Notes under the pieces: model-generated
Told to the model about the DNA's origin: nothing
What the model saw: the letters and a program-made list of their open reading frames with translations, nothing else
The model's database searches: none
Position numbers and translations under genes: made by a program
Part shown: one piece after another, positions 1 through 28,903 of the stretch
How positions within the stretch are numbered: position 1 is the first letter of the stretch
How the letters are laid out: every line of letters starts with the position of its first letter
Source: Candidatus Omnitrophota bacterium
Lineage (GTDB): Bacteria > Omnitrophota > Omnitrophia > Omnitrophales > Aquincolibacteriaceae
Assembly: GCA_903856085.1 (NCBI GenBank)
Contig: CAIOAT010000016.1
Span: 8,581-72,580 of the forward strand
Length of the DNA stretch: 64,000 nucleotides
Reading direction: 5' to 3'

Positions 1-22
1 TCAGCAAGAGAGCTTCGGACAT
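1..22 (-). CDS. 5' end (7 codons, MSEALLL) of the next ABC permease gene, expected to be pstA from gene order; runs off the window
   Basis: ATG at 20-22 (minus) lies 1 nt downstream of the pstC stop codon at 24-26. The canonical order is pstS-pstC-pstA. The fragment is far too short to verify by similarity. Confidence 0.3.
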
Positions 23-23
23 A

Positions 24-965
24 TTACATCCTCAATTTCTGGCGCATTTTATTCAGGACAATCTCGGAAACAAGGTTCAGGACAAACGTAAAAGTAAAAA
101 GCACGGCTCCGACTAGAAAAAGCGCGTAGTAGTGTTCGCTGCCCTGGGCTACGGAACCGAGCTCCGCAGCAATATTGGCGGTCATAGTCCGGACACTTGA
201 AAAAATATTACCTGTTACAAGTGCGGCATTGCCGGTCGCCATAAGCACGATCATCGTTTCCCCGAGCGCTCGCCCGAATCCAAGAATGATCGCCGCCGAG
301 ATCCCCGAAACTGCGGCCGGTACGACCGTTCCCCACACTGTCTGCCACTTCGTGGCACCTAAGGCATACGAGGCGTCCCGCAAGTCTTTGGGTACTGCCC
401 GCATCGCGTCCTCCGCAATGGTAATCATGATCGGCAGAACAGCCAGGGCTACCCCGCAAGCACCGACAAAAGCATTCAAGCGGAACTTGGTATGGAAAGT
501 ATTCTGAATAAAGGTCGCGATAAAAGCCAGCATCACAAATCCGATCACAACCGAGGGGATACCAGCCAAAAGCTCCAGTGTTGGCTTCAGAATTTCACGA
601 ACTTTGGAGGGGGCAAGTTCTGAAAGATAGATTGCACAGCCGAGTCCGAGAACGCCGGCAATGACCGTAGCGGGAAAAGCCACAAGAAGGCTGCCGCAAA
701 TAAGCGGAATGAGGGAATACTTTGGGACTTCGGATATCGATTGCCACATCATCTTGAAAACATAGTGTCCTTCCCAATCGTCGTACACCCATTTCCCAAT
801 CAGGTCAAATGGATTGGCCGTAAAAAAGAACCGCACAGCTTCTTTGAAAAGAAAAACAAAAATCAAGGCCATAATAAGCATCGACGAGATCCCTGCCAAA
901 AGCAAAAGCTTCTGGATCAGCCACTCTGAGAAATTCCCGCTTTTTTTCGTCAGTCGATGTCTCAT
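24..965 (-). CDS. pstC: Phosphate ABC transporter permease PstC
   Basis: 313-aa multi-TM ORF with an ABC-permease EAA-type loop (IAEDAMRAVPKDLRDASYALGATKWQT). It lies directly downstream of pstS on the same strand. Confidence 0.9.
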   Translation of the reverse strand: MRHRLTKKSGNFSEWLIQKLLLLAGISSMLIMALIFVFLFKEAVRFFFTANPFDLIGKWVYDDWEGHYVFKMMWQSISEVPKYSLIPLICGSLLVAFPATVIAGVLGLGCAIYLSELAPSKVREILKPTLELLAGIPSVVIGFVMLAFIATFIQNTFHTKFRLNAFVGACGVALAVLPIMITIAEDAMRAVPKDLRDASYALGATKWQTVWGTVVPAAVSGISAAIILGFGRALGETMIVLMATGNAALVTGNIFSSVRTMTANIAAELGSVAQGSEHYYALFLVGAVLFTFTFVLNLVSEIVLNKMRQKLRM

Positions 966-1048
966 TTTCCCCAGCTCATCTTAAAGGAAACAAGCGCCCC
1001 CAATGCGAGGGCGCCTGTTTCCCTTAATAATTTGGTTTCTTTACGATT

Positions 1049-1924
1049 CTACTTCTTCAGTTTCAATGGAACATACCCGATTTCTTCGACGATCTTCTGA
1101 CCTTCCGGACTCATGATCCAGTCCAGATAAGCTTTGATCTCGCCCTTGGGCTTAAAACCGGTGTACATATACAAATAGCGCCAAATAGGATACGTCCCGC
1201 TCCAGGCTGCTTCATAGTCAAGCGTTCCATCAGCCTTAACCGGGTTGATGGCCGGGGACTTATCATCCCTCTTCACGGAAAGGATCTTCACTCCCGGCTG
1301 CTTAATGTAATAAGCTGCGCCCCCGTAACCAATACCATTGGGATCCTTGGAAACCGCATTGGCAATCGCCGAGGTTCCGGGCATGGTCTGACAATCCGCC
1401 GCATAATCTTTGTTCTTGAGAACTTCTTCTTTGAGGAATGTATAGGTCCCGCTTGACGACTCACGGCAATACCGGAGGATGGGTTGATTGGGCCCGCCAA
1501 TTTCATTCCAGTTATTGATATTACCCATATAGATCCCCTGAATCTGTTTCAAGGAAAGTTCCTTGATAGGATTTGAAGCATTTACCACGATGGCCAAACT
1601 ATCCATCGCGACCTTGAATTCTTCAGGATAGTAACCGGCGGCTTTCGCTTTATCCATCTCGCTGGCCTTGATCTTGCGGCTGGCGTTCGCGATATCGGTA
1701 GTCCCATTGATCAGGGCTGCAATTCCGACACCTGAACCACCTCCGGTCACCTGGATCGCGGCTTCAGGGTGCTTCTGCATGTAGACTTCGGCCCACTTCT
1801 GCCCCATGACCACGATCGTGTCGGAACCCTTGACAGTGATGTTCTTCGCGGCGAAGGCTGACGGAATTATGGCCGCCAAAGCCATCACCAAAACACCCCT
1901 TATAACCCAACGCGTTGTTTTCAT
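1049..1924 (-). CDS. pstS: Phosphate ABC transporter substrate-binding protein PstS
   Basis: PstS-type blocks are present (ITVKGSDTIV, VTGGGSGVGIAALINGTTDIANASR). Signal peptide MKTTRWVIRGVLVMALAAIIPSAFA. SD AAAGGAG lies upstream of ATG 1924. The ORF-track start at 1966 lies upstream of the predicted -10 and adds a non-signal extension. Confidence 0.9.
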   Translation of the reverse strand: MKTTRWVIRGVLVMALAAIIPSAFAAKNITVKGSDTIVVMGQKWAEVYMQKHPEAAIQVTGGGSGVGIAALINGTTDIANASRKIKASEMDKAKAAGYYPEEFKVAMDSLAIVVNASNPIKELSLKQIQGIYMGNINNWNEIGGPNQPILRYCRESSSGTYTFLKEEVLKNKDYAADCQTMPGTSAIANAVSKDPNGIGYGGAAYYIKQPGVKILSVKRDDKSPAINPVKADGTLDYEAAWSGTYPIWRYLYMYTGFKPKGEIKAYLDWIMSPEGQKIVEEIGYVPLKLKK

Positions 1925-1949
1925 TTTAGCTTCTCCTTTTGACGCCTTC

Positions 1950-1994
1950 AGTTTAAATGAAAGCATCCTGGTTAGATGTAAAATTCCTGTAAAC
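1950..1994 (-). promoter_or_regulatory. Pho-box-like direct repeat plus candidate -10 in front of pstS
   Basis: Top strand has TGTAAAA (1977-1983) and TGTAAAC (1988-1994), 11 bp apart. On the gene strand this reads GTTTACA-N4-TTTTACA. A candidate -10, TAAACT (1950-1955), lies 21 nt downstream. The element sits between the porin stop (1997) and pstS. Confidence 0.5.
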
Positions 1995-1996
1995 TC

Positions 1997-3583
1997 TTAG
2001 AACTTATACGTCATATCGAGCTGAAACCGGCGAACCGATTGATCCGTTTGCATACCCGTCGTATAAATGGAGTTTCTCTGAGTGATCGGTCGAACGAGGT
2101 AACACGCGCCATTCACGGTCAGATAATCGGTGAGGTTGTATCCCAACTTGATGACACTGCCATCTTTGTCAGCACCACCATAGTTATACCCGCCAAAGTC
2201 GCTATCATTAAAAGCGCCAGGTACAGAGTTTGCACCGATATACTTGTATTGGTAGCTCGTCTGCCAATCCCCCTTTTTCACGAGCTTCCCGAGCGTGAGA
2301 CCTAGCGACCAGGCATACTCGCCACCCTGCATCGTGTAATTTTGGGCCGCTCCAGTCTGAGCACCAATTCCAGATGTGTTGCTCATATTCCGCGCAAATT
2401 CAGCGAATGGTTTTACGGGAACACCGTAAGGATAGAGATTAACCTCCTGATACAAGCTCAGAACATTAAACTTTCCTGCCGCCAACCTAGATCCGTCAAT
2501 CGGATTTCCATTAGCGAAACTCGTAGCAGGAGTGCTTCCATTATAGGCATTCCAATTGGAGTTCTCGGCGTAATGCTGATAATTGTAAACAGAAAGTGCC
2601 GTAAGCGCATCCACAGGCCTTTCCATTCCGGGAACATAGAAAACGGGATTCAACCCAACTTGATAAGCGAACAGGTTGGCGTCTTTTCCCTGGGAAGGTT
2701 GATTTGCCACGCCATTAGCGGTGGCATAGGTAGCTGTATTCCCATTCTCCTGGAGGATGAATTGGCCCAAGGTAGCGTAGGCTTTAAGATCCAGGTTATC
2801 GGTCTTTAAGAGCCGCGCATCGATCTTTTCATAGGCACCTTCCGGTTTCAGGTCCCGGTCCCAGATCATATCGGTAGAACCTTTTTCGAAAGGATTGTTG
2901 AATTTACCGCCAGTAACCTCCAAACCCGAGACTGCCAAATCCCCGACGGGATTGATCTTGGCCCATTCCGGAGTGTAGGTTGCGTAAGCCTTTTCGATCC
3001 AGATGTTTTTGAAGGTGAAATCATTACCAAGGGTTTGATTCGTAGAGATGGGGTCGGTGTTACCGTTGGCCGAAGTCGAACCGCCGCTGGCCATCGAAAA
3101 ACCGACTTTCATTTCCGGATTGAATGTTTTTTCAAATCCATAGCGCAGGCGGATACGAAACCGGTTTCTGTCCGGCTGGTAAGTATTAACGCCCGCAGGA
3201 GCTGTCGTTCCATTCCAGCGATTACCGGTTAGGCCAAACGCCTCATATCTCAAACGAAGATCTCCGCTGAACTTGAGGTCCTTGAGCCACTTGTTGGCAC
3301 CGCCGGTCGAATCGCTCAAGCGCTGATTGAATTCGGCTTCACTCATCGGAGGAGTTGCTTCCACGCCGCTAGGAGCCACAGCGATCTTCCCGCCGTTACC
3401 TGCCTTGAGCGCCTGGATCTCTGATTTCTGCGCCATGACGGTCGACTGCAGATCGTTCATCTGTTTCTGCATGTTCTTGACCATATCCATGAGCTGCGCT
3501 TCATCCGCGAACGCCGCAGACGAAAAAGTCATAAGGCAAACGACTAAAATGCTCGCCAGTTTTGTGAAAGGGTGGTATTTCAT
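1997..3583 (-). CDS. Outer-membrane beta-barrel porin with N-terminal coiled coil (candidate phosphate-regulon porin)
   Basis: SD GGAGGA precedes ATG 3583. Signal peptide MKYHPFTKLASILVVCLMTFSSAAFA. Heptad-like segment QLMDMVKNMQKQMNDLQSTVMAQKSEIQALKA. About 440 aa of G/Y/N-rich alternating strands follow, ending in ...LDMTYKF (terminal Phe typical of OMPs). The ORF-track start at 3784 is rejected because it has no SD and lies upstream of the predicted promoter. Confidence 0.7.
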   Translation of the reverse strand: MKYHPFTKLASILVVCLMTFSSAAFADEAQLMDMVKNMQKQMNDLQSTVMAQKSEIQALKAGNGGKIAVAPSGVEATPPMSEAEFNQRLSDSTGGANKWLKDLKFSGDLRLRYEAFGLTGNRWNGTTAPAGVNTYQPDRNRFRIRLRYGFEKTFNPEMKVGFSMASGGSTSANGNTDPISTNQTLGNDFTFKNIWIEKAYATYTPEWAKINPVGDLAVSGLEVTGGKFNNPFEKGSTDMIWDRDLKPEGAYEKIDARLLKTDNLDLKAYATLGQFILQENGNTATYATANGVANQPSQGKDANLFAYQVGLNPVFYVPGMERPVDALTALSVYNYQHYAENSNWNAYNGSTPATSFANGNPIDGSRLAAGKFNVLSLYQEVNLYPYGVPVKPFAEFARNMSNTSGIGAQTGAAQNYTMQGGEYAWSLGLTLGKLVKKGDWQTSYQYKYIGANSVPGAFNDSDFGGYNYGGADKDGSVIKLGYNLTDYLTVNGACYLVRPITQRNSIYTTGMQTDQSVRRFQLDMTYKF

Positions 3584-3655: not shown

Positions 3656-3710
3656 AGTATAGAAAACCCGTGTCAGGTCTCCATGATGGAAATGTAAAGA
3701 AATTGTAAGG
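3656..3710 (-). promoter_or_regulatory. Four-half-site Pho-box-like array plus -10 upstream of the porin gene
   Basis: Gene-strand half-sites are CCTTACA (3710-3704), CTTTACA (3699-3693), TCCATCA (3690-3684) and CCTGACA (3677-3671), spaced 11, 9 and 13 bp. A 9-nt gap follows, then TATACT (3661-3656). The array lies about 70 nt upstream of ATG 3583. Confidence 0.55.
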
Positions 3711-3790: not shown

Positions 3791-3819
3791 GAAAAGCTCC
3801 CCCTCCCTGCAGGAAGAGG
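3791..3819 (-). terminator. Candidate rho-independent terminator after ppk2
   Basis: The minus strand reads CCTCTTCC-TGCA-GGGAGGGG, an 8-bp stem with two G-U pairs, followed by GAGCTTTTC. It lies 100 nt downstream of the ppk2 stop and upstream of the porin promoter array. Confidence 0.4.
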
Positions 3820-3918
3820 ACTGGAATGGAGGCGTGGGATCACCTGAAGACTTCCCATTGGTAGCGCAGTTTCACCTCGACGCAATTACTTAGAGGGGAC
3901 CCCGTTTTTCAGGGCTTC

Positions 3919-4776
3919 TTAGTAAACCGCCTGCACAAATCTCTGTTTGTTGAGAGGCGGGCGTTTGTAACCTTTATCTTTCTGGCGCTTTGGAATGACG
4001 AGTTTCTTTTGGGTCACATCTCTATAGGGGATCTGAGCCAATAGATGTGTCATGCAATTCAGGCGGGAACGTTTTTTGTCGTTCGAGTCCACCACATGCC
4101 AGGGAGAATCCTTGGTGTCCGTATGTTCAAACATGACATCCTTGGCTTTTGAATATTCCACCCAGCGAGCGCGGGCTTCTAAATCCATCGGGCTGAGTTT
4201 CCAGCGCCGGGCGGGATCCTTGAGCCTTTCCTGAAAGCGCGCTTCCTGCACGGCATCGCTGACCGAAAACCAGTATTTAATGAGAATAGTTCCGGAACGG
4301 ATCAGTTCTTTCTCGAATTGCGGGCAAAAATCCAAAAAATCCCGGTACTCCGCATCCGTGCAAAAGCCCATCACGCGTTCGACGCCCGCACGGTTGTACC
4401 AACTGCGATCAAAAAGCACCACCTCCCCGGCGGCCGGCAAATACGCGGCATACCGCTGGAAATACCACTGTGTTTTTTCCCGCTCCGTAGGAGTTCCCAA
4501 CGCCGCGATCCGGACAATGCGCGGGTTCGTGAGTCCCGTTATCCGTTTGATCACGCCCCCCTTACCGGCCGCATCACGCCCCTCAAAAAGCACCACGACC
4601 TTGAGCCCCTTAAACTTGACCCACTCTTCCAATTTGACCATCTCGGTTTGCAGCCGCTCGATTTCCCGGTCGTAAATCTTGTTTTTAAGTTTCTTGGGCA
4701 GGCCGTCGAGCTTTCCGGATTTTTTCTTCAGGATCTTCCTTATTTCTTCTTTCACATGTTGATCCTTCTTGCCCAT
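3919..4776 (-). CDS. ppk2: Polyphosphate kinase 2 (single-domain PPK2)
   Basis: 285 aa with a PPK2 P-loop region (VVLFEGRDAAGKGGVIKRI) and the FDRSWYNRAGVERVMGF block. Confidence 0.9.
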   Translation of the reverse strand: MGKKDQHVKEEIRKILKKKSGKLDGLPKKLKNKIYDREIERLQTEMVKLEEWVKFKGLKVVVLFEGRDAAGKGGVIKRITGLTNPRIVRIAALGTPTEREKTQWYFQRYAAYLPAAGEVVLFDRSWYNRAGVERVMGFCTDAEYRDFLDFCPQFEKELIRSGTILIKYWFSVSDAVQEARFQERLKDPARRWKLSPMDLEARARWVEYSKAKDVMFEHTDTKDSPWHVVDSNDKKRSRLNCMTHLLAQIPYRDVTQKKLVIPKRQKDKGYKRPPLNKQRFVQAVY

Positions 4777-4840: not shown

Positions 4841-5398
4841 TCAGATCTTCACTTCGTTGGGGTAAGCGAGTTTCTTAAGCTCTTCTATCATTTGCTCGAC
4901 ATTTTTTGTTTCAGCGCTATCAGGGCCTATTTTTTTCAGACGAATATTCAGCGCCTTGTTGAGAATATCGATGGCGGCCGTGTATTTTTTTTGCATGGCA
5001 TAAGCAACACCAAGGTTAAAATAAATCGCCGCCATTTCCACGCCTTCTTTGTCCAACTTTTTAAGATCGATCAGGACAGCCAGCTTGTAGAGCTGCTCGG
5101 CTTCCGACGCACGCTTCAGGTACAAATAAAGATTTGCCAGATTATTCATGGTATCTGCGGCTTCCAGGCTGTCTTTCCCGTACTCCTCTTTCGCCACCTG
5201 AACGGCTTTTTCTGCGGCTTGAAGCGCTGCCGGCAAGTCCCTCGCTTCATTTGCGGCAACGAGCTGATCGTTCAAAGCTTGTATCTTTGCCGCACCTGCA
5301 CTGTGATCCTTCGCGAGCACAGGCTCCGCCTGCGCAGTAAGACAGATGAGAGCACTCAGAGTAAGCATTGAAATATAGCGGCATTTTTTCATCATCAT
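4841..5398 (-). CDS. Secreted tetratricopeptide-repeat protein
   Basis: Signal peptide MKKCRYISMLTLSALICLTAQA. TPR-like 34-aa repeats are present (ADTMNNLANLYLYLKRASEAEQLY; AAIYFNLGVAYAMQKKYTAAIDIL). SD GGAG lies upstream of a triple ATG (5392/5395/5398). Confidence 0.7.
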   Translation of the reverse strand: MMMKKCRYISMLTLSALICLTAQAEPVLAKDHSAGAAKIQALNDQLVAANEARDLPAALQAAEKAVQVAKEEYGKDSLEAADTMNNLANLYLYLKRASEAEQLYKLAVLIDLKKLDKEGVEMAAIYFNLGVAYAMQKKYTAAIDILNKALNIRLKKIGPDSAETKNVEQMIEELKKLAYPNEVKI

Positions 5399-5497
5399 TT
5401 TAAATCTCCGGATTCCTGAAACTATTTCTCTCCTTAAGACGCAGGATTGTAGTCCTTTGGAAAGCGGAAATCAAATCTTCCGAAGCTTTCTGATAGT

Positions 5498-5537
5498 TTT
5501 TACACATATTTATCATCACCGTCATGGGGTATTTACA
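5498..5537 (+). promoter_or_regulatory. Pho-box-like array on the plus strand (four half-sites)
   Basis: Half-sites are TTTTACA (5498-5504), TTTATCA (5509-5515), ACCGTCA (5518-5524) and ATTTACA (5531-5537). The 11/9/13 spacing is identical to the porin array. It lies 60-100 nt upstream of small ORF 5599 and in the upstream region of the divergent TPR-ppk2 unit. Confidence 0.45.
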
Positions 5538-5598
5538 TAGAAATGCGAGACTTGGGTCAGAATAAAGAATAAAACAAGCTTGCGAAAGGGGATCAACC

Positions 5599-5832
5599 AT
5601 GATCAGCCAATTAGACTGCCTCGAAGACTTGATGGATTGGAATTCTTGCACCGAAATCAAATCGGCGCCTACCGCACGCGTGGGAAAGAGTTTTTTCCCT
5701 GTTTTTATGATCGAGTCCGCAACGACATCACCGGCCGGCAAAGAAATGGACTCGTGGCTTATCCGGTCCGGGCTTTCTCCCCAAGCAAGCCTTGCCTTCA
5801 GCCGGATCGGGATCTACACGGATTTTTCTTAG
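5599..5832 (+). CDS. Orphan small ORF (77 aa), hypothetical
   Basis: ATG is preceded by GAAAGGGGA (SD-like, 7-nt spacer) and sits downstream of the plus-strand Pho-box-like array. I recognise no family. It is the only plausible plus-strand gene in the first 26 kb. Confidence 0.3.
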   Translation: MISQLDCLEDLMDWNSCTEIKSAPTARVGKSFFPVFMIESATTSPAGKEMDSWLIRSGLSPQASLAFSRIGIYTDFS

Positions 5833-5901: not shown

Positions 5902-6717
5902 TCAAGAGACGGGAACAAACTGGGCCTGAGCGGCTTCCCAGAGCTGACGGGCCAGATCTTTCCGCTGACCCGCTCTTATCGGCCTGTCGCCAAAAACAAA
6001 ACGCGCCTTGAAGGTCCTCATCCGAAGCAGGTCCTTCAAGTGCGGCATGAATTCCATATCGCCCCACCAGCAAACAGACCGGCTGGCCGGGGTTTCTTCC
6101 CGGGGCGTTCGATAGAAGATCGTAACAAAATGGACAGGATAGAGCCTGTCGGCGGCCGATCTAAAAAGCGCCGCATTAAAAGGAAGGATCCCGCTTCCTG
6201 CGCTGCTGGTTCCTTCCGGAAAAAACAAGACACCTTTCCGTCCCTCGAACGCCTCTTCGATCTCCCGGTTGACGCGGATCGCATCCCGGGCATTGTCCCG
6301 GTCCACAAAGATACAATCGAAAGCTTTGATCACGCTTCCAAGAAAAGGCCATTCCTCGACTTCCCTTTTTGCAATAAAAACAGCGTCAAGCTGGGTCGCT
6401 AGGGCGATGATATCGACATAGCTTAGATGATTGCTAATAATAACATAGGGGGACTCCGGCGGCGTCCCGCGAACAGTGATGCGCATTCCAAGCACGGCAG
6501 CTGAGGCACGGGCCCAGAATCTGAAAACGATCTTCCTCCAGCGCCAGCCGGCCGCAGGAAGAAGGAACCTTCTGAAAAAAATAAGAAGGTAGGTCAATAC
6601 AAGCACCGAAAAAATCAAAAAGATGCGGACCCGGGCTCGGATCGAACCCCGGAGGCTCTCTACGAAACCGGCTATTTCAGTTATGAAAGAAGTCAAAGGT
6701 CTTTTCATCGAGATCAT
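5902..6717 (-). CDS. Lysophospholipid/lyso-aminolipid O-acyltransferase (PlsC/LPLAT family, OlsA-like)
   Basis: HX4D motif NHLSYVDI, FPEGTSS block and an N-terminal TM helix. The start is uncertain (ATG 6717 or 6708). Either start overlaps the 3' end of the upstream N-acyltransferase gene. Confidence 0.8.
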   Translation of the reverse strand: MISMKRPLTSFITEIAGFVESLRGSIRARVRIFLIFSVLVLTYLLIFFRRFLLPAAGWRWRKIVFRFWARASAAVLGMRITVRGTPPESPYVIISNHLSYVDIIALATQLDAVFIAKREVEEWPFLGSVIKAFDCIFVDRDNARDAIRVNREIEEAFEGRKGVLFFPEGTSSAGSGILPFNAALFRSAADRLYPVHFVTIFYRTPREETPASRSVCWWGDMEFMPHLKDLLRMRTFKARFVFGDRPIRAGQRKDLARQLWEAAQAQFVPVS

Positions 6718-7474
6718 CAATGTCGAGAAGTGTAAGAAAATCAATAGTGCCGAACGCGCGGTCCACGGCAGGTTCACTGCAGATCCGCGCCCCAAAATTC
6801 AGATAGGCCTTCAGCAAGCGAGGGATCGTCTTTTTTTTCAAGGGATACGGTGCCTCGAGAGGCTCCCCACATTCAAAATCAGGACAAACGCCAAGAAAAA
6901 TCTCCGGATGCAAATAGCCATGGGTGGATAAATAATCAAACGCATGCCAACCCTCACGGGGGTCCTGTTCCGTCAAAGAGGTGCAGCCGAAGAGGTACCG
7001 CTTCCCTTTCATCTCGAGATATTTCACAAGCCCCTTCCACAAGAGGAAAAGAACTTTGACGTTCCGATGCTCCTTTGCAATGCACGCGCGACCGATCTCG
7101 ATCCCGTTCTTCAAGTATGCGTTCGGGAACCTAGTAAAATCGAATTCCGCGGCAGAATAAAAACCAATATTCGCCTGCGCCATTTCGAAGGTTTGAAGAC
7201 GATAGGTCCCGACGGGCACCCCCGTCCTGTTCTCGCAGATAACAAGATGATCGCAATAGCGGTCAAAACCATCCTCGTCCTTACCGGACAAGTGCGACCG
7301 GAGAAGTCCCTCCTGCAGCTCCAGGTTAAAAACCCGATATCTTAAGCGGAGTACAGCATCCAGATCCGGTGAATCCCCTTTGAGAAAACGAATGTGGAAC
7401 CCTTTGTCCGGAGGAGCAGAGACAAGGTCCGAACGGACCTCCTGGCTTGCGCCTTTTTCCTGAACGGCGCTCAT
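6677..7474 (-). CDS. GNAT-type N-acyltransferase of the OlsB/hemolysin-like family (aminolipid synthesis)
   Basis: Blocks LRLRYRVFNLELQEG, FDRYCDHLVI and IGRACIAKEHR are typical of the Acetyltransf_5/OlsB family. ATG 7474 overlaps the PHP gene stop (ATGA). Confidence 0.75.
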   Translation of the reverse strand: MSAVQEKGASQEVRSDLVSAPPDKGFHIRFLKGDSPDLDAVLRLRYRVFNLELQEGLLRSHLSGKDEDGFDRYCDHLVICENRTGVPVGTYRLQTFEMAQANIGFYSAAEFDFTRFPNAYLKNGIEIGRACIAKEHRNVKVLFLLWKGLVKYLEMKGKRYLFGCTSLTEQDPREGWHAFDYLSTHGYLHPEIFLGVCPDFECGEPLEAPYPLKKKTIPRLLKAYLNFGARICSEPAVDRAFGTIDFLTLLDIDDLDEKTFDFFHN

Positions 7475-9231
7475 AAGCACCTCACCACAGATGGATTTTC
7501 AAAAAGTTCATTCCGCCGCTTAAAAAGAATCTTTTCTTGAGACTCATCCCCGCGATACTCCCCATCTGCGAGGTTGCAGAGATACTTCAGATATTTTTCA
7601 ACAGCCTCAAAAGTACCGTCTTCGGTATCGGGGAGATCGGCGCGGGAAACTTCCGGAGAAAACGTCACAAGACATTTGACATCCAGCATACGGGCCGCAA
7701 TAAACCCAAGCAATCCGATCGGCCCCGGCGTATCGATCACGATACGATCGGGATTCCATTTCTCGATCACCGAGAGCGCCCCGAGAACCGATGGAATCCT
7801 GAGCGAGAAACAACCGAAAAATCGTCTTCGAAGGAGCCCGATCATCGGCAGGTCGAGCGCCCCGGAACAACCCAGCGGCCTTCGCGGACGGGAACAGACA
7901 GCCACTCTGACAGACTGACCTCTGGCGAGGTTCCGCTTGGAGCGGAATTCTTCGAGATCCCTCAGCGACCTTACGGCATCCGAGAACCAGAGACTCCTTT
8001 CCGGGATTTTCGCCGACCTGGCCGGACATTCTTCATGGAACTCAAGGTCTTCCAACAGCCTCTTGTTATGGTTCAACAAACGGAGTGCAGCAAAGAACGG
8101 CGCACCGAGGAATGTGGTCGCAATAATGCCTTTTTTCAGCCAGCGGGCCTTTCCGGCACGCCCCTGCTTCGGCCCAAGAGCCTGGATCATGTTCCGGACG
8201 ATCTCATCGAGCAATATTGTCAGTTGTTTGTAAACAAGATCGATCCTCTGGACGGAGGAGAGGGAGCTATTCGAGGCATACCCTCGGAAAATACCAGAAA
8301 AGAATTTCCCGAGAACCTTATGAAAATTCCGTGGACTTCGTACAAGAAAAAATGAGAGGACGCGAAGTAATCCACCGTGGGATTTATTCCCCCGAAGCAT
8401 CCCGCCAATTTCGCGGGAGATGAACGCGGGGCTCTTTTTCCCAGCGAGATCACCATAAACGTGCCCCCCGATCAAGATAAAGCTCAAAGCCATGGACTTA
8501 TAATCGTGGTTACGGCCAAACCCGAATGTCTTTTTATCACGAAGAGATTGCAGAAAATCTTGCTTTGTCCTGCCAGAGGCCACCGTGAAGGTATCCCCGA
8601 TAAAAAGACCAGCATGATCATCCGACCCGCCTGTCAGTCCCTTAATCCAGCTGTCTTCCGAGAAAGGTTCGATCCGATGCTTGGCATGCAACCGTTCGAT
8701 ATCTTCGTGGGTCAAATGCTCGATGGCCTCGGTCCATTCCTGGTTATGACGGGTGGCATGAGCACCGTTCACACTTTCAAAAACATCGAAAAGCAAAATA
8801 AGCTTTTCAAGGCCGTCGCGATCAATCTTGCGATTCACGCTGAGCGTTGCGTGAGCAACCGAATAGGCGAGCCTTTCTGCACGGATATAATCCCTGAAAG
8901 CATAAATGTTCGAACGGAGCCCCAGGAGCTTCGCGAACTGTTTTTCTGTAAGATCGAAAACAAGGATGTGAACCTTGCAATGGTTCTCCGGGAAAACAAC
9001 CGAAAACTCACAACTAACAAAGGCTTCGGCGGGATACTTGTGGGCCAGACGGAGCGCTCCCTCAATAGAATTGTGGTCGGTCACCGTAACAAAATCCATT
9101 TTCTTGAATTTTGCAACGCGATAAATATGCTCGAGCTCCGTATAGGATTCACGGACCCCGAGCGCTTTCAACGTCCACTCATCTCCATCCAGAGAATACT
9201 TCGAATGCAAATGCAGATCGGCTCTAGCCAT
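7471..9231 (-). CDS. PHP-domain metal-dependent phosphoesterase fused to the N-terminal half of a GT-B (GT4-like) fold
   Basis: PHP motifs: DLHLHSKYSLDG, VTDHNSIEG, GGSDDHAG. The C-terminal ~170 aa resemble a GT4 N-domain (VRVAVCS..., PDRIVIDTPGPIGLLGFIAARML) with no C-half. ATG 9231 has SD GGAAAGGAA. The track start at 9255 is a TTG. Confidence 0.7.
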   Translation of the reverse strand: MARADLHLHSKYSLDGDEWTLKALGVRESYTELEHIYRVAKFKKMDFVTVTDHNSIEGALRLAHKYPAEAFVSCEFSVVFPENHCKVHILVFDLTEKQFAKLLGLRSNIYAFRDYIRAERLAYSVAHATLSVNRKIDRDGLEKLILLFDVFESVNGAHATRHNQEWTEAIEHLTHEDIERLHAKHRIEPFSEDSWIKGLTGGSDDHAGLFIGDTFTVASGRTKQDFLQSLRDKKTFGFGRNHDYKSMALSFILIGGHVYGDLAGKKSPAFISREIGGMLRGNKSHGGLLRVLSFFLVRSPRNFHKVLGKFFSGIFRGYASNSSLSSVQRIDLVYKQLTILLDEIVRNMIQALGPKQGRAGKARWLKKGIIATTFLGAPFFAALRLLNHNKRLLEDLEFHEECPARSAKIPERSLWFSDAVRSLRDLEEFRSKRNLARGQSVRVAVCSRPRRPLGCSGALDLPMIGLLRRRFFGCFSLRIPSVLGALSVIEKWNPDRIVIDTPGPIGLLGFIAARMLDVKCLVTFSPEVSRADLPDTEDGTFEAVEKYLKYLCNLADGEYRGDESQEKILFKRRNELFENPSVVRCL

Positions 9232-9385
9232 AAATGATTCCTTTCCTGGACTCAAGATCTACCCAGAATCATTATCGACGATCAACATGATGGGAGTGTT
9301 TGGCGGAGGAAAATTCCGTGTAAAATCATTTTGAAACGACGTAATCAGCTCTGGGGAAACAGGTTAAAGAAACCCTGCCGAACGC

Positions 9386-11455: not shown

Positions 11456-11467
11456 AGTTTTGAAACT

Positions 11468-13030: not shown

Positions 13031-13038
13031 GCTGTTCC

Positions 13039-14059: not shown

Positions 14060-14103
14060 ATTATAATGGCTCAGGGAAGTTTTTATGTAAAGCATTTGTA
14101 AAG
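14060..14103 (-). promoter_or_regulatory. Pho-box-like repeat plus consensus -10 for the ROK-ppx-ppk1 operon
   Basis: Top strand has TGTAAAG (14086-14092) and TGTAAAG (14097-14103), exactly 11 bp apart. On the gene strand this reads CTTTACA-AATG-CTTTACA. TATAAT (14065-14060) lies 20 nt downstream, and ATG 14031 follows about 29 nt later. Confidence 0.6.
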
Positions 14104-14279
14104 TCTTGGTGGCTCTATCCATTCAGACCACCTAAAAAGCCCTTCCAGAAATTCCGTAGAGAAATCCACAGGCCCCTATCTTCACACAAAACACAGGGTA
14201 TTCCTCGCGATCTTTTAACGCAAACAAGCCATCACATAAACCTCTGTGCGAATGAACACGTTTTTCACAGGAACTGTTT

Positions 14280-20200: not shown

Positions 20201-23200
20201 CCGGAGAAATATACGCTCTCGATACTTTTGAAGAATGCCCGTTCTCTGGAACGGAAGACGCTCCCTCCAAAGAAACAATTCGGAAATAGCCTTGGTGTTG
20301 GGGCACCACCACGAATGTTGCTTCATAAGGATTCTTGGTTTCCTTGCGTAATGTCCAGATCCCCTTTCTTTCCGTTTTAAGAAATTTCGCACCCTGCAGG
20401 TCTTTTCCTAAAAAAGTCACTGTAGAGGAGGGAACGCCCCGCTGCATTAAAAGCTGCGCTCCTTTCATGTTTTCGGTGATCATTTGTTTGCCCACCAATT
20501 TCTGAATCGCCAATTCATTGGTTTGAGCCAAGGCTGACGAAGCCATGAGAAAAGCCCCCAGCAAAAATCCTCCCATTATTTTTAACAAGAAATGGATTCC
20601 CAGCTTTCGGCGAACTTCTGAACGCTGTGGTGCAATTCCTAGCCCGAAGAAATTTGCCCCGGTGATAACATTCAAAGGTTCTACCCACGTTTCGGATGCG
20701 CGCAGATCTGTAAAACCCTTCGTAGTCCATACTTTTTCGGATACAACTTGAGCATTCAACCAATCTCTTAGTTCGTCCGGGATAGTTTTTGATCCCACCA
20801 GTCTCCACGAGAAAACCTTCCGGGAAAAACCTAAGACGATTTGGATATCAGCAATGGGTGGGGCGTTTTGATTCGTCTTCACGTGAAATAGGGTGCCATT
20901 TATGCCAAGCTTGTGCCCTCGTCTTAAAAATCCCTGCAATTCTGGAGACATCTCCAAAACAATTTTGCCAAGATCAACCCTGTAAACCAACCCCGCAACC
21001 TTTGTCTCTGGCCCAAAAGCTTCAATGTGCTTCGCCGAAAGAGAGGCTGCGCTCCGCATTTCGAATCTTGTCACACCCTTCTTGAAAGACCGATAAGCCT
21101 GCATCAAAAGGCCTGCGGCGATTGCTGACGCTTCCTCTTTTTCTTCAGCCCTTAGCTTTGATTCCCGCGTGTTCAATTCGATATATTCACGAATTCGAAC
21201 GTTAAGTCCAGATAGCGCAGAGGAGGTAAAATTCATCTCGAAAGATTCGATCGCTTTAGCGGCTAGCGCGTAAGGAACCAAGGTATCCGGCAGATCCTTG
21301 GCCTGTCCAAGATCGTTTCTAACCGATTCCAAATCGGCAAAAGTAACCCCGCCATTCCGTTCTTTTCCATAAATGAGTCCCCACGCAAGCGCCCAAGCCG
21401 CCATCGCCTGCTCAGCAGGGATTCGAATGGCCCCCTTAGCCGACGTCATAAGCTCGAGTGACACGGCGAGCATAGACGTCGGGATCATTGCATCCGCATC
21501 ATCCAACAACCCGCCATCGATCAAGCTCACGATCGCATGATGGGCAAGAGCACGCACGGTTCCGCAATCACTGAGATTAAGTTGCAAAAGCACTTCTGCA
21601 CGCTTCAAAGCTTCCCCAAGGATTTCCTTATTCATAACGGGATCAAGATAATTTGAACGCGCCTCCGAACGAACGACGATTTGCGCTTTCACCGATCCCG
21701 GTTCAGAACGGCCAGACGCTGCCTTTTCGCGAGAAAACCGATGGCGAGAGAGTTTCGAATCAACATTGGAACGCCGAAAGGCCTCTGAAATCAAAACACC
21801 CAGATGAATTTTTTTAATCATTTTCAAAGCCACCCAGGAAAAGGCAATATCCCCCGTAAGGATGACGAGCTCTGAAAGGTAGGGGCTTACAAGCTTGTTG
21901 ATAATCATCGCCATCCCCTCAACAGGAAGGAACCATAACAACAATTGACGGCGACTCTCCTTAAAAGATCCGTGGCTTTTGAAGAGTCGTAGAGATTCGA
22001 AGTTATTTTCAGGATAGATGTTTGTATAATATTTCCAGAGCATAAGTGGATAAAAAATATAAAAATTGATCAAAGCATCCCCCATGGTTTTAAGGACGAT
22101 CTCAGACCACACATCAAGCCATGGGGAAAGATTTAATTTCCCGATTAAGGCATAATAAACGGTAAAAAATAAAGCGAACAAGCTAGCTGGAGCTGCGGCT
22201 TTCCTGGAGTCTTTCCAGAATGTTTTCATGAACACTCCTCGAAAGCCATGGCGAAGATAATCCTGCATCCAGACACAATATGCCGCAATCATGCCAGCCC
22301 AGGCGATACTCACGCCAAGTGAAAGAACTAAAGAATGCCATGACGCGTTCTGAAGATGCGGTTTAAGGATAAACGCCAGCCCCAGAGTGGCGGCTGAAAA
22401 TCCAGCTGTCCCCATCGCGGCAGGTGTGATTTGTTTGAGATGAGCGAGTTTGGATCTCTGGTTCCTTATTTCGGACCGGCCGAGCAAGACTTGGGGCAAT
22501 CCCTTTACGTCCCGAGTAAGCACTTGCAGCTCTTTGGCTGCCAATGTGGCCGCCTTGCGAGAGAATAGGATTTGGATCTGATTACTGGGGATCTTTAAAG
22601 CGTCCACAATAAGCCGGTCCTCGGTAACGCCAGCCCCACGAGCCTTTTTCAGATAGCCATCAATCCTTGCATTCTCGGCCTCCGCAATCCGTATCGTCTC
22701 ATTTTCAGCCACAATCGTTTGAAGAAGACCTGCAATCTTCTCTTCGATTTTGTCATGAACTGTCAAGAGCTCGGCTTCCGCTACACGAGTCTCCAGAAGA
22801 GCTATTTCCCGATTGGCTCGCTCAGCGCCCCCGAAAGTCACCTTCCCGCCGAGACCTACGGCCTGCTGATCCTCCGTGCGTTGTTTTGCCTCCGGAACAA
22901 CTCTTGTATTGAACACATCCGGAACTTTTGTCCCATAGGAATCGAAATAGTTGAATCCCTTAAGACCGATCGAGTAACCGTTCTCTCTTGCAGCCAATCT
23001 CGCGGCCGTTGCGGCAGTCAAACGGGCCTCATAAGCCAACGCAAGTTCACGGTTTGCCGGAAGTTTGACGCCTTCTTTGGAGGTTGCTTTAAGACCAAGC
23101 GCTATTCGTTGATCGGTTGTGATCGTCCACCCTTCCGGAAATCGCACATAATTCAAGGCATTGGAAAAAGTCGCACATCCTAAGATGTTTTGGCCATAGA

Positions 23201-26096: not shown

Positions 26097-26114
26097 GGTA
26101 AAGATAATGTAAAA
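26097..26114 (-). promoter_or_regulatory. Pho-box-like repeat 85-130 nt upstream of the giant ORF start
   Basis: Top strand has GGTAAAG (26097-26103) and TGTAAAA (26108-26114), 11 bp apart. On the gene strand this reads TTTTACA-TTAT-CTTTACC. No convincing -10 was found at the expected distance. Confidence 0.4.
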
Positions 26115-26283: not shown

Positions 26284-26337
26284 ATTTCAAAAATTTCTTG
26301 GAAACCTTCCTTTCAGAAGTGTAAAGAGTTGGTAAAG
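26284..26337 (-). promoter_or_regulatory. Pho-box-like repeat plus candidate -10 in the giant-ORF/phoB divergent region
   Basis: Top strand has TGTAAAG (26320-26326) and GGTAAAG (26331-26337), 11 bp apart. A weaker in-phase site, GTTTCCA, is at 26305-26299. A 9-nt gap follows, then TGAAAT (26289-26284) on the minus strand. The repeat is also about 100 nt upstream of phoB. Confidence 0.45.
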
Positions 26338-26390
26338 CTTCTATCTGTTACGCTGAAACAGGTTATGTCCGATTTGAAACTCCTCCGATT

Positions 26391-26419
26391 TTTCAACCTG
26401 TAACGAACTGTGGTACAAT
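26391..26419 (+). promoter_or_regulatory. Candidate sigma70-type promoter of phoB
   Basis: TTTCAA (26391-26396), a 17-nt spacer, then TACAAT (26414-26419). SD GGAG is at 26431-26434 and ATG at 26440. Confidence 0.4.
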
Positions 26420-26439
26420 GAACTAACTTTGGAGTTCAT

Positions 26440-27129
26440 ATGGCAAGCGAAACGATTCTCCTCATTGAAGACGAAAAGAACATCCTTGAGCTTGTGAAAT
26501 ACAACCTCGAGCAGGAGGGTTTTCGCGTCCTCACCGCGACCAAAGGCAACGCAGGTCTTGAGACAGCGCTTAAAGAAAAACCAGCCCTTGTGCTCCTCGA
26601 CCTCATGCTCCCGGAAATCAATGGCCTCGAGATTTGCAAAACCCTAAAACAGACCGAAAAAACACGCAGGATCCCTATCATCATGCTTACGGCCAAAGGC
26701 ACCGAGTCCGATAAAGTCGTCGGCCTCGAACTCGGCGCCGATGATTACATCACCAAACCTTTCAGCCCCCGGGAACTCGTAGCTCGCATCAAAGCCGTCC
26801 TTAGACGCTCTCAGGAAAAAGCCCCGGAAGAGATCTTGAGATCCGGAACGATCGAGCTTGACGTGACAAAGCATGAGCTGCGATTAAAAGGAAAGCCCGC
26901 CGAAATTACCGCCAAAGAATTCGAACTCTTGCGCGTACTCATGAGTTCCAAGGAACGGGTCCTGACGCGCGAGGTTCTCTTATCAAAAGTTTGGGGTTAT
27001 GAGAATTCTGTGAATATCGAAACGCGGACTGTCGACATGCACGTCGGACAGCTACGAAAAAAACTTGGCAAAGAAGCGGATCGGATCGTCACGGTTAAAA
27101 GCGTCGGCTACCGTTTCGACGGAGAATAA
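26440..27129 (+). CDS. phoB: OmpR/PhoB-family response regulator (phosphate regulon regulator)
   Basis: Receiver domain (ILLIEDEKNILELV, LVLLDLMLPE, MLTAKG) plus a winged-helix C-terminus (TRTVDMHVGQLRKKL, VKSVGYRF). It is adjacent to a PhoR-like kinase and to the pst/ppk genes. Confidence 0.8.
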   Translation: MASETILLIEDEKNILELVKYNLEQEGFRVLTATKGNAGLETALKEKPALVLLDLMLPEINGLEICKTLKQTEKTRRIPIIMLTAKGTESDKVVGLELGADDYITKPFSPRELVARIKAVLRRSQEKAPEEILRSGTIELDVTKHELRLKGKPAEITAKEFELLRVLMSSKERVLTREVLLSKVWGYENSVNIETRTVDMHVGQLRKKLGKEADRIVTVKSVGYRFDGE

Positions 27130-27130
27130 G

Positions 27131-28903
27131 ATGGGCTTTCCAAAGATCGGTTTCGCCAAACGTCTCCTCGTGCTGTATGGCATTATTTTCATCCTCGTCC
27201 TGCTCGTAACCGATTGGACGCTTTCTCATTTCCTCCAAAAGCGTGACCTCCAACAGCTTCAGAGCTCTCTTTCGCGTCAGTCGACCCTGATCCGCGAGAT
27301 TGCGACTCCTCTATTAAAGGAGGCTCCCAAGCTCCAATCCAAAGTCAAAAAGCTAGCCGAGGGGACCGATCTTCGCATCACGATCATCGATCCCGAAGGC
27401 GCGATCCTTGCCGATTCCAGTGAAACCAGCGAGGCTCTCGCGAAAATGGACAATCACGCGACCCGGCCCGAGGTTGCGTCCGCACTGAGAAAAGAAACGG
27501 GCATGAGCATCCGTTACAGCATGACTGTTCAGACCAAAATGCTTTATATCGCTATCCCCATCCTGGAACACTCCCAGATCCTAGGGGTCGTTCGCACCGC
27601 GATGCCGATCACACGCGTCGATGAGATCCTGGCCTCGGTCCGCCGACCCGTGATGCTCGCAGCGGTCCTCGGCATTTTGATCGTCCTCGTTGCCGGCATT
27701 CTCTTCGGCGGTCGCCTCACCCAACGCATAGGACGCATCACCTCCGTAGCCGAACGTTATGCCCGCGAGGACTGGTCTGAAAAAATCCTGATGGACGGCC
27801 GCGACGAGCTCAAAATGCTCGCAGATACCATGAATCAAATGGCCACATCCCTGCGCTCAAGGATCGAAGACCTGGAAAGTGAGAAAGGTAAGATTTCCGT
27901 CATTTTGAGCAATATGAACGAAGGGGTGATCGCGATTAGCCGGCGCAAACAGTTTGTTATGGCAAATCCCGCAGCGGAAAAAATCTTTGGATTCACTGCC
28001 GCCCATACGCAGGAGAAAAGTCTGATCGAAATCACACGCCACCCTCAACTCGAAAGGATCGTGGACCACGCCTTCCAGGAGCAAAAAAACGCCTCCTCCG
28101 AAATCCAGATCTCCGGCAAGATAAAAAAGACACTTCTTGCAAATGTGATCGTTCTCGATGCCCACGCCCGCGATATCGGCGGCATCCTTGTTTTTCATGA
28201 CATGACGGAGCTCCGTCGACTCGAGAATATCCGGAAGGAATTCGTAGCCAATGTTTCCCACGAACTCCGCACGCCCCTCACCTCGATTAAGGGATTCATT
28301 GAAACGTTGCTGGGCGGCGCCTTAAAAGATCCCCCGACCAGCGAACGGTTCCTGAAAATTGTTTCGGAGGAGACGGATCGACTCGGAAGGCTGGTGGAAG
28401 ATATTCTGACGCTTGGCGAGATCGAACAGGGCGCGGCTCTGGTCAGGAAAGAAAAGATCGATCTTGCCTCTGAACTCCCGGCCATCCTGGAACGATTTAA
28501 GACCCAGCTCCAAGAAAAAAAGATCGCGGTCGAAAACCGCATCTCCGGGAAACCTCTCCCGCTATCTGGAGACAGGGACAAAGTCCATCAGGTCTTCGTC
28601 AATCTCATCGACAATGCGATCAAATTCAATAAGCCTGAAGGGATGATCGTCCTGTCTGCCGATCAAAGTCCGAAAGGCGTGGTGATTACCATCGAGGATA
28701 CGGGGATCGGTATTCCTGAAGAGTCCCTAGGACGGATTTTTGAGCGGTTCTTTCGTGTGGATAAAGCACGTTCAAAGGAGCTTGGAGGAACCGGATTGGG
28801 CCTAGCCATCGTTAAACACATCATGGAAGCGCATGGCGGCCACGCCACATGCCAAAGCACCCCCGGCCAGGGTTCCCGCTTTTCGGTTTTTTTTCCCGCC
28901 TGA
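27131..28903 (+). CDS. phoR: Sensor histidine kinase, PhoR-like
   Basis: Two TM helices flank a ~150-aa loop. PAS segment NMNEGVIAISRRKQFVMANPAAEKIFG, H-box FVANVSHELRTPLTSIKG, N/G boxes NLIDNAIKFN, DTGIGIP and GGTGLGLAIVKHI. ATG 27131 is separated from the phoB stop by a single nt. The track start at 27065 is rejected. Confidence 0.8.
   Translation: MGFPKIGFAKRLLVLYGIIFILVLLVTDWTLSHFLQKRDLQQLQSSLSRQSTLIREIATPLLKEAPKLQSKVKKLAEGTDLRITIIDPEGAILADSSETSEALAKMDNHATRPEVASALRKETGMSIRYSMTVQTKMLYIAIPILEHSQILGVVRTAMPITRVDEILASVRRPVMLAAVLGILIVLVAGILFGGRLTQRIGRITSVAERYAREDWSEKILMDGRDELKMLADTMNQMATSLRSRIEDLESEKGKISVILSNMNEGVIAISRRKQFVMANPAAEKIFGFTAAHTQEKSLIEITRHPQLERIVDHAFQEQKNASSEIQISGKIKKTLLANVIVLDAHARDIGGILVFHDMTELRRLENIRKEFVANVSHELRTPLTSIKGFIETLLGGALKDPPTSERFLKIVSEETDRLGRLVEDILTLGEIEQGAALVRKEKIDLASELPAILERFKTQLQEKKIAVENRISGKPLPLSGDRDKVHQVFVNLIDNAIKFNKPEGMIVLSADQSPKGVVITIEDTGIGIPEESLGRIFERFFRVDKARSKELGGTGLGLAIVKHIMEAHGGHATCQSTPGQGSRFSVFFPA

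Follow-up and report, generated by a model that had tools for sequence, protein, structure and literature searches.

The first 28,903 bases of the 64-kb window analysed here (the whole stretch of Omnitrophota DNA whose first lines are shown above, and to which all positions refer) carry a block of genes for phosphate uptake, polyphosphate turnover, lipid acylation and two-component regulation, together with a giant open reading frame (ORF) (Table 1). An earlier note on this DNA had called the block a "phosphate-economy island", and it is indeed a coherent block whose gene identities hold in family scans: every phosphate gene named there was found at its position, in the ORF listing and by Pfam and NCBIfam scans, except pstA. 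We consider it quite probable, judging from the sequence, that positions 1-28,903 and about 3 kb past the left edge of the window form the core of the Pho regulon of an Omnitrophota bacterium. In this respect it is a new case of a well-known kind. What goes beyond the routine is the compactness of the block, the unit formed by a PHP-family phosphoesterase gene with olsBA, and a giant gene, box-preceded and polyprotein-like, that encloses a TolC-like channel and is punctuated by R[SA]ExR. The island offers a first picture, open to testing, of how Omnitrophota, an uncultured phylum whose cells are mostly very small, respond to phosphate starvation, and supplies a concrete candidate regulator-binding motif along with a defined set of target operons.

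Families were assigned with Pfam and with NCBIfam/TIGR models and their curated bit-score cutoffs, and related loci, cited below by their L numbers, were drawn from Omnitrophota metagenome-assembled genomes (MAGs). Both pstS and pstC score above their NCBIfam cutoffs, and pstA, pstB and phoU come next, beyond the left edge of the window on the same contig (as seen in L008/L009), which makes this a PstSCAB-PhoU system and the island fuller than the window shows. Of the pstS-pstC-(pstA) series proposed earlier, the first two genes are therefore in the window, whereas pstA lies outside it, just beyond base 1. Contigs identical to that of the window are present in several public assemblies. The porin that opens the porin-pst unit has the same position in L012 and in the distant P0087 locus. 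Start codons were revised for pstS, ROK, phoR and the giant ORF; that of pstS is likely ATG 1924, with AAGGAG before it.

The polyphosphate set was likewise borne out, with PPK1 and PPK2 above their NCBIfam cutoffs and PPX matching Pfam Ppx-GppA; on TIGR03706, an exception-level model, PPX reaches 175 bits, under the cutoff of 307. The best solved relatives of the ROK kinase are glucokinases, and the possibility of a polyphosphate glucokinase found no support (54 bits on the equivalog model, cutoff 250), though such an activity is conceivable. The sensor kinase is of the PhoR/PnpS type, scoring 413 bits on the PnpS model NF046044 (cutoff 400) and 309 bits on the PhoR model TIGR02966, under the cutoff of 334. 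When compared with the Pho regulons of Escherichia coli and Bacillus subtilis, the block is alike in its PhoR/PnpS- and PhoB-like pair, its pstSCAB-phoU operon and its 11-bp tandem repeats at -35. It differs in its half-site (TTTACA, against CTGTCAT in the E. coli Pho box), in the Cache-like domain of its kinase, and in bringing a giant ORF together with the genes for polyphosphate and lipids in one block.

Table 1. Features of the phosphate block. All lie on the minus strand except the phoB-like and phoR-like genes and the 77-aa ORF; residue numbers of the giant protein are counted from TTG 26015, 10 codons upstream of ATG 25985.
Feature	Position	Strand	Evidence or remark
pstC, phosphate ABC transporter permease	24-965	-	TIGR02138, 244.7 bits (cutoff 196)
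Strong inverted repeat between pstS and pstC, GGAAACAGGCGCCC...GGGCGCTTGTTTCC	986-1022	-	read from sequence
pstS, periplasmic phosphate-binding protein	1049-1924	-	TIGR02136, 248.9 bits (cutoff 206.6)
Pho-box-like repeat TTTACAGGAATTTTACA upstream of pstS	1977-1993	-	exact pattern match
Porin_5 outer-membrane porin, first gene of the porin-pst unit	1997-3583	-	PF16930, E 3e-40
Pho-box-like repeat CTTACAATTTCTTTACA upstream of porin	3693-3709	-	one mismatch; orthologous boxes in L010, L012
Terminator-like stem-loop after ppk2	3798-3820	-	scan; such sites in the region no commoner than in shuffles
ppk2, class-I PPK2	3919-4776	-	TIGR03707, 353.6 bits (cutoff 301.8)
TPR protein, 185 aa, signal peptide, secreted	4841-5398	-	Pfam TPR_12 / TPR families
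77-aa ORF, probably not a gene	5599-5832	+	no family match
PlsC-family O-acyltransferase, OlsA-like	5902-6708	-	PF01553; HX4D motif HLSYVD
OlsB-like GNAT N-acyltransferase	6677-7480	-	PF13444 (Acetyltransf_5), E 7e-27
PHP phosphoesterase, helical linker and vestigial N-terminal half of glycosyltransferase family 4 (GT4), 586 aa	7471-9231	-	weak Pfam PHP
Weaker box TTCAAA-N5-TTTACA-N5-TTTTCC upstream of PHP gene	9308-9335	-	two overlapping matches, two mismatches each
ppk1, polyphosphate kinase 1	9386-11455	-	TIGR03705, 785.7 bits (cutoff 466)
ppx, Ppx/GppA exopolyphosphatase with HD domain III	11468-13030	-	PF02541, PF21447, PF01966
ROK-family sugar kinase, glucokinase-like	13039-14031	-	PF00480, E 1.6e-54
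Pho box TTTACAAATGCTTTACA of ROK-ppx-ppk1	14086-14102	-	TATAAT 20 nt downstream; promoter 14061-14102
Giant ORF, 3,901 aa	14280-25985	-	ATG 25985
Giant: transmembrane (TM) anchor and Tiki/ChaN/Ere-like module	aa 1-560
Giant: lipoprotein signal peptide and TolC-like channel	aa 692-1185
Giant: 4-TM segment	aa 1186-1455
Giant: soluble segment	aa 1456-1805
Giant: Sec signal peptide and periplasmic segment of ~900 residues	aa 1806-2720		weak biotin-lipoyl-like motifs
Giant: TM segment	aa 2720-3040
Giant: orphan cytoplasmic domain	aa 3040-3460
Giant: NUDIX domain	aa 3461-3597
Giant: C-terminal domain	aa 3630-3911
Pho-box-like repeat TTTACATTATCTTTACC upstream of giant ORF	26097-26113	-	112-128 nt before giant ATG
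Second repeat TTTACCAACTCTTTACA in divergent giant/phoB gap	26320-26336	- (giant ORF's orientation)	104-120 nt from phoB ATG
phoB-like, OmpR-family response regulator	26440-27129	+	top NCBIfam match TIGR02154 PhoB
phoR-like sensor histidine kinase, PhoR/PnpS type	27131-28903	+	Cache-like, HAMP, PAS, HisKA, HATPase

Tandem repeats, gene order and predicted co-regulation

The strongest argument for a regulon, and one that is a prediction, comes from a Pho-box-like tandem repeat. Five sites in the window match TTTACA-N5-TTTACA with at most one mismatch, where 0.12 would be expected, and none of 100 shuffles reached five. Each of the five falls within the island, in an intergenic region and on the strand of the genes. 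Neither such a box nor, according to family scans, a phosphate gene occurs in the other 35 kb, which carries housekeeping genes, among them those for aldehyde dehydrogenase, citrate synthase, aconitase, isocitrate dehydrogenase, MutY, RsmB and an aminopeptidase. The tight clustering claimed earlier therefore exceeds chance. Thirteen further boxes, again with at most one mismatch, were observed in seven related loci (134 kb), every one of them gene-oriented and upstream of the giant ORF, ROK, the PHP gene or the porin. The block upstream of the PHP gene, where the window has only its weaker box, keeps the repeat and a GATAAT -10 element in six loci, with one-mismatch boxes in L003 and L005. At the ROK promoter, the distance from the box to TATAAT is fixed at 20 nt in every locus compared, and the arrangement recurs in L005, L006, L011 and L017; since the annotated ROK start lies inside this promoter, the true start is ATG 14031. 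The giant ORF is preceded by a box in six of the six loci that include upstream DNA (the window, L003, L005, L006, L017 and L016), including that of a distant homologue with no phosphate genes nearby, and the two-box arrangement of the giant/phoB gap is the same in L006. Tandem repeats with an 11-bp period at the -35 region are a hallmark of OmpR/PhoB-family activators, and the TTTACA half-site resembles the Bacillus PhoP site, TT(A/T/C)ACA. The shared repeat predicts co-regulation of most units of the island.

The gene order is not unique to this assembly and is conserved in close relatives. L003 and L005 have aldehyde dehydrogenase-kinase-regulator and, divergent from these, giant-(small ORF)-ROK-ppx-ppk1-(178-aa gene)-PHP-olsB-olsA-TPR or PAP2, an order with which the partial contigs L010, L011, L013 and L017 agree. 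The close relatives are 93-96% identical in ROK and 85-92% in PPX, and synteny by itself is weak proof, because most of the syntenic genomes are so close that non-phosphate flanks match too. Three comparisons tell more. L012 has neither ROK-ppx-ppk1 nor ppk2 and still shows giant-PHP-olsBA-TPR-porin-pst. In L006 and L017 the regulator pair stays divergent from the giant ORF despite a different gene beyond the kinase. The distant P0087 locus, whose PHP protein is 48% identical to that of the window, reads ROK-ppx-ppk1-179aa-PHP-olsB-olsA-TPR-TPR-porin-pstSCAB-phoU, without ppk2 or the giant ORF. Since this lineage has the core without the giant ORF, the core island predates the giant ORF's presence in it.

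Several of our observations weigh against a Pho regulon that takes in the whole block. The PhoB-like regulator reaches 265 bits on TIGR02154, under the cutoff of 296, and the Cache-like periplasmic domain of the kinase is absent from E. coli PhoR. A window scan upstream of TPR-ppk2 detected no canonical Pho box; the non-phosphate flanking genes in L003 and L005 are just as syntenic as the phosphate genes; and the distant island does without the giant ORF. Part of the box signal may also be ordinary promoter structure, since TTTACA resembles the sigma-70 -35 hexamer. One may even suppose that the neighbourhood is conserved without common control, the repeats being -35-like elements or sites of another OmpR-family regulator, as would suit the unboxed TPR-ppk2, the syntenic flanks, the single base that separates TTTACA from TTGACA and the TTTACA-17-CATTAT that a promoter scan reads at the ROK promoter, but this is very unlikely given that all five occurrences of the exact 11-bp tandem are in the island and none in the remaining 35 kb, that it recurs at orthologous promoters in seven loci and that the sole OmpR-family regulator nearby is PhoB-like.

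Under the regulon reading, phosphate limitation would lead the PhoR/PnpS-type kinase to phosphorylate the PhoB-like regulator, which would then bind tandem (C/T)TTTACA repeats, 11 bp apart, at or just upstream of -35. Four units would be switched on: porin-pstSCAB-phoU for high-affinity uptake; ROK-ppx-ppk1 for polyphosphate synthesis and mobilisation, along with a sugar kinase; PHP-olsB-olsA for membrane remodelling; and the giant ORF. TPR-ppk2 would sit in the block but outside the boxed units.

Some details of these promoters and loci are of separate interest. Three genomes share a conserved element, GACCTGACACG, in the stretch that separates the porin Pho box from a TATACT -10-like hexamer, located at 3656-3692 in the window and in matching regions after the boxes of L010 (6229-6245) and L012 (12966-12982); it may be a second regulatory site. 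In L006 an inserted element (22625-22941) follows a ROK-type promoter with Pho box and TATAAT; it is flanked by CCCCACCCGT(G/A)AGGGTGGGG hairpins and contains a short ORF fragment that may belong to an IS200/IS605 transposase. What is left of ppk1 in L012 (Omnitrophota MAG fen_1321) is 31 residues of its C-terminus, at 8650-8742, flanked by the giant ORF and the PHP gene, and because this remnant persists the polyphosphate genes of L012 appear to have been deleted recently.

The PHP-olsB-olsA unit

The PHP gene overlaps olsB, and olsB in turn overlaps olsA. The earlier note had seen in the two acyltransferases an OlsB/OlsA-type pair; this stands at the family level, on their Pfam domains and the HX4D motif, while both proteins miss the ornithine-lipid equivalog cutoffs (OlsA-like, 141 bits on NF052553, cutoff 300; OlsB-like, 121.6 bits on NF052554, cutoff 350). 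These shortfalls count against a specific ornithine-lipid assignment, and the pair is best called OlsBA-like. Operons of olsBA are induced by phosphate limitation in Pseudomonas aeruginosa (PA4350-PA4351) and Sinorhizobium meliloti (OlsB/OlsA). The unit described here resembles them in having an adjacent OlsB-like (PF13444) protein and a PlsC-type HX4D O-acyltransferase behind a Pho-box-like element, and differs in missing the equivalog cutoffs and in the overlapping PHP phosphoesterase gene that precedes the pair.

Over some 90% of its length, at 35-41% identity (39% over ~530 residues), the PHP protein aligns with the first ~600 residues of PHP-GT4 fusions, a large family whose members have about 800 residues. 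The PHP metal-binding motifs are conserved (DLHxHS, TDHN, H-LVF, GGSDDH). Of the GT4 part, only a degenerate N-terminal half is left, with a weak Glyco_transf_4 match in Pfam, and the Glycos_transf_1 half is absent. In three unrelated genomes, relatives of this protein adjoin genes for phosphate starvation or phosphorus-free lipids: in Desulfobacula toluolica close to pstB-phoU and to genes for phosphonate-binding proteins, with a second glycosyltransferase gene directly after; in Marispirochaeta near an alkaline phosphatase gene; and in L018 (8001-14278), where the relative bears the GT4 half, near glycosyltransferase, DUF3419 and methyltransferase genes. PF11899/DUF3419 is the BtaA family of betaine-lipid synthesis. 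L014 (8001-11519) has a full PHP-GT4 fusion followed by a second glycosyltransferase gene. The earlier suggestion that the "PHP fusion" belongs to the phosphate response is plausible.

PlcP is a calcineurin-type metallophosphoesterase. The proposed logic of the PHP-olsB-olsA unit is similar to that of PlcP-Agt lipid remodelling, known from marine and soil bacteria (PMC4796936), in that a phosphoesterase removes a phosphate-bearing head group and a neighbouring enzyme makes a phosphorus-free lipid; moreover, PHP relatives are fused to GT4, the family of Agt, beside phosphate-starvation genes. The PHP protein is nevertheless not itself a member of that system, having a PHP fold rather than a metallophosphoesterase domain and a GT4 partner that lacks Glycos_transf_1, so that an analogue is what is possible. 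By this analogy, the vestigial glycosyltransferase half would be functionally replaced here by OlsB/OlsA. The most economical reading is that the PHP protein would be a lipid-remodelling phosphoesterase, PlcP-like in role but of a different fold, coupled to the synthesis of an aminolipid and not of a glycolipid. It would recover phosphate from phospholipids or their precursors, while the OlsB/OlsA-type acyltransferases would build a phosphorus-free acyloxyacyl amino-acid lipid.

An alternative, which we regard as unlikely, is that the PHP protein is a TrpH/pAp-phosphatase-type enzyme for soluble organophosphate, linked to olsBA by transcription only. Characterised PHP enzymes are known for acting on soluble substrates; one JGI record labels a homologue 'metal-dependent phosphoesterase TrpH', and a sequence search against solved structures returned nothing significant, hence no solved relative. 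A link at the level of transcription alone does not sit well with the overlap of the PHP coding sequence with olsB, which suggests translational coupling, nor a soluble substrate with the conserved hydrophobic linker, the covalent fusion of homologues to GT4 and the location of others beside a second glycosyltransferase gene or a DUF3419 gene. A full-text literature search found no paper linking a PHP domain to PlcP-type remodelling. Outside Proteobacteria, this PHP-fold family may provide lipid remodelling quite generally; in anaerobic and candidate phyla it may correspond to PlcP and have gone unrecognised as such.

The giant ORF and its R[SA]ExR motifs

The giant ORF is a real gene: 14 contigs, drawn from five sources, carry identical copies. 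Two tiers of relatives can be told apart: seven proteins that share most modules at 30-53% identity, and some 70 proteins of 2,000-6,500 residues that have the N-terminal 560 residues alone in common and carry differing enzyme domains. Where members of the second tier bear a source name, as few do, it is Omnitrophota, Auribacterota, Elusimicrobia or Endomicrobiaceae. In L003, L005, L006, L011 and L012 the giant ORF is 24-62% identical where neighbouring proteins are 73-96% identical; on these comparisons it is an accessory, fast-evolving insertion and a hypervariable locus in a conserved block. In L006 the middle part of the ORF has been replaced by one that includes an HATPase_c domain. Directly after the giant ORF, four relatives encode a small conserved protein with the motif Y-[AS]-Y-C-(E/G)-x-C (L003 14717-15025; L005 21661-21942; L006 21985-22209; L012 7880-8359), which has no counterpart in the window, where 14062-14279 is 218 nt of non-coding DNA.

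The TolC-like channel is headed by a textbook lipoprotein signal peptide at residues 692-710, MKAVLWVVMAGILSGC, with an OprM-like lipobox, LSGC. For the 480 residues after it, all 44 best Foldseek matches are outer-membrane factors (OMFs; lowest E-value 1e-9, top matches at TM-scores of 0.57-0.66), and the structure model thus indicates a complete TolC/OprM-type OMF fold. The confidence of the model (pLDDT, predicted local distance difference test) is 70.8, with the beta-barrel strands at low confidence. Pfam OEP gives 20.3 bits for the window protein, under the cutoff of 22, and matches six of nine homologues; a profile search against the sequences of solved structures gave nothing significant. 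Searched together against 1.84 billion representative proteins, the orphan domain and NUDIX have just four strong relatives, each belonging to this clade. NUDIX is the sole Pfam match on the whole giant protein, and as an isolated segment it scores 31.4 bits (cutoff 21.1). The N-module was modelled with a pLDDT of 83; it has four invariant residues (H88, E116, R459, H495), and five of its 25 homologues show a weak match to Pfam Cofac_haem_bdg. A helical insertion of ~300 residues sets it apart from the Tiki/ChaN/TraB/erythromycin-esterase superfamily.

The module boundaries are marked by a short motif, R[SA]ExR, at residues 683, 1180, 1449, 1798 and 3627. When the window giant was compared with its homologues P0002-P0072, RSExR was found 187 times against 6.6 expected from composition (28-fold), with up to 19 copies per protein; RAExR was found 74 times and shuffled-order controls 1-26 times. 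The motif punctuates a part of the family that shares the N-module, and no other real ORF of the window contains R[SA]ExR. A lipoprotein signal peptide comes immediately after the motif in four close homologues, and overall 13% of motifs precede a hydrophobic stretch. A nucleotide signal, such as an in-frame Shine-Dalgarno sequence or an RNA site, was rejected, since all codon positions of the motif vary and selection therefore acts on the peptide. The searchable literature yielded no description of R[SA]ExR, the matches to the motif string being irrelevant.

The sequence and the models suggest that the giant product probably needs proteolytic processing. Cutting at or near R[SA]ExR is most likely, because an OMF inside a multi-TM chain cannot reach the outer membrane and because the topology set by the first TM segment contradicts the internal signal peptides. 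By analogy, the N-module is a candidate processing protease. The giant ORF is thus best understood as a polyprotein, and its cut products would make up an envelope-spanning apparatus produced under phosphate stress: a membrane-anchored Tiki/ChaN/erythromycin-esterase-like hydrolase module, a lipoprotein TolC-like channel, inner-membrane and periplasmic segments, and the cytoplasmic orphan domain with NUDIX. A fuller reading, which we offer as tentative, sees in it a whole operon fused into a single frame, which phosphate starvation would induce and which would be cut at R[SA]ExR, possibly by its own N-module, into the parts of an envelope-spanning machine. Such a machine would resemble tripartite TolC/OprM exporters in its full OMF fold, OprM-like lipobox, signal-peptide-led periplasmic segment and multi-TM segments, and would differ from them in having all parts in one frame, a sub-threshold adaptor and no recognisable RND, ABC or MFS pump.

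The identity of several of these parts speaks less clearly for such a machine. Foldseek ranked the Tiki/ChaN/Ere-like family first for the N-module without reaching significance (best E 0.036), and a search against the PDB, with a profile as well, gave no sequence-level match. A periplasmic adaptor (membrane fusion protein) is at most suggested by the biotin-lipoyl matches, which are sub-threshold. The NUDIX box reads E-x7-RGFLEEL instead of REUxEE, with Gly replacing Glu after Arg, while the distant homologues P0006 and P0199 keep REFxEEL. It is also possible, if rather doubtful, that the giant ORF yields a single uncut multi-domain membrane protein, in which R[SA]ExR serves as a linker, sorting or binding motif and the TolC-like part is no outer-membrane channel. 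This would agree with the lack of a demonstrated protease, with the esterases and haem binders that the Tiki/ChaN-like fold also includes, and with the modest share of motifs that precede a hydrophobic stretch. It leaves the lipoprotein and Sec signal peptides inside the chain, directly after motifs, to be explained, as well as a full-length OMF that, tethered on both sides to TM segments, would be unable to reach the outer membrane, and a membrane topology that is inconsistent if no cutting takes place.

Whether or not it is cut, the giant ORF might have nothing to do with phosphate, being an envelope or prey-contact giant of Omnitrophota that lies beside phoBR by chance, with the boxes in the gap serving phoBR autoregulation. 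We judge this improbable. Its absence from the P0087-type island, its far faster evolution than that of its neighbours, and the distant homologue P0009, which has no phosphate genes nearby and so tells against a phosphate role, all fit such a view, as does the frequency of giant mosaic proteins in the phylum (bioRxiv 10.1101/2023.11.21.568195; 10.64898/2026.06.07.730766). However, both gap boxes have the orientation of the giant ORF, and the one proximal to its ATG is ~330 nt from phoB; a box precedes the giant in all loci with upstream DNA, even in L016, which has no phoBR nearby; and the pairing of phoBR with the giant is kept in L006 and L017, whose kinase is flanked on its other side by a gene different from the aldehyde dehydrogenase of the window. 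The membership proposed in the earlier note is therefore plausible on account of the box and of the pairing with the regulator, but does not extend to the distant island.

The published Omnitrophota giant mosaics, for which the points of cleavage are stated as unknown (bioRxiv 10.1101/2023.11.21.568195; 10.64898/2026.06.07.730766), share with the window giant the phylum, many TM segments, scattered enzyme domains including NUDIX, and a suspected post-translational cleavage. In contrast, the window giant is about 10 times shorter, lacks SecA-DEAD, C39 and S8 peptidase domains, has a family defined by the N-terminal Tiki/ChaN-like module, and includes a whole TolC-like protomer and a Pho box. 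An assignment to the Archaeovorin/Dockerin type was rejected on its length (3,901 aa, as opposed to >10,000-30,000 aa) and on the absence of SecA-DEAD and C39/S8. If the collapsed-operon reading is true, R[SA]ExR would be the cleavage code missing from this literature. Should the motif indeed indicate where processing takes place, giant proteins from these phyla could be divided computationally into units amenable to analysis, and one of them would be linked to nutrient stress and not to predation alone.

Minor genes and the remainder of the window

Two further members of unclear function had been counted with the phosphate physiology. The TPR protein remains a candidate: it is secreted, and it is syntenic in L003, L010 and L012 and even in the distant P0087 locus, though the missing box speaks against it. 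The 77-aa ORF was dropped, as it has no family match and no counterpart in L003, L005, L010 or L012, and is missing even from relatives whose neighbouring proteins are 80-86% identical. A 113-aa ORF at 5400-5741 was likewise rejected, having no family match and being uncalled in any public annotation. An attenuating or mRNA-stabilising role is possible for the inverted repeat in the pstS-pstC gap, which may thereby raise pstS expression over that of the permease genes.

A secreted protein of 178 residues, with no Pfam match on record, is encoded between ppk1 and the PHP gene in relatives (L003 19949-20485; L005 27031-27567). In the genome of the window it has been relocated beyond phoU, where it retains a one-mismatch Pho box (L008 13618-14154, minus strand), and it is likely a further member of the predicted regulon.

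An Rfam scan of the window returned no RNA family, and a generic promoter and terminator scan gave counts no higher than in shuffles. Outside the island, the genes for citrate synthase (32351-33505), aconitase (43139-45829) and isocitrate dehydrogenase (46727-47824) are found within 15 kb of one another. A 2026 preprint reports citrate synthase as uncommon in the phylum, with 21 of 176 genomes having it, so that this lineage may be metabolically richer than most. Three ORFs (33648-34535, 34714-36279 and 36664-37884) have no Pfam or NCBIfam match and stand beside the gene of a 979-residue GT92/GT2/TOD1-like protein (38641-41580). The GC content of 33648-41580 is 0.44-0.45, compared with ~0.50 elsewhere, and this stretch may be an acquired glycosylation segment.

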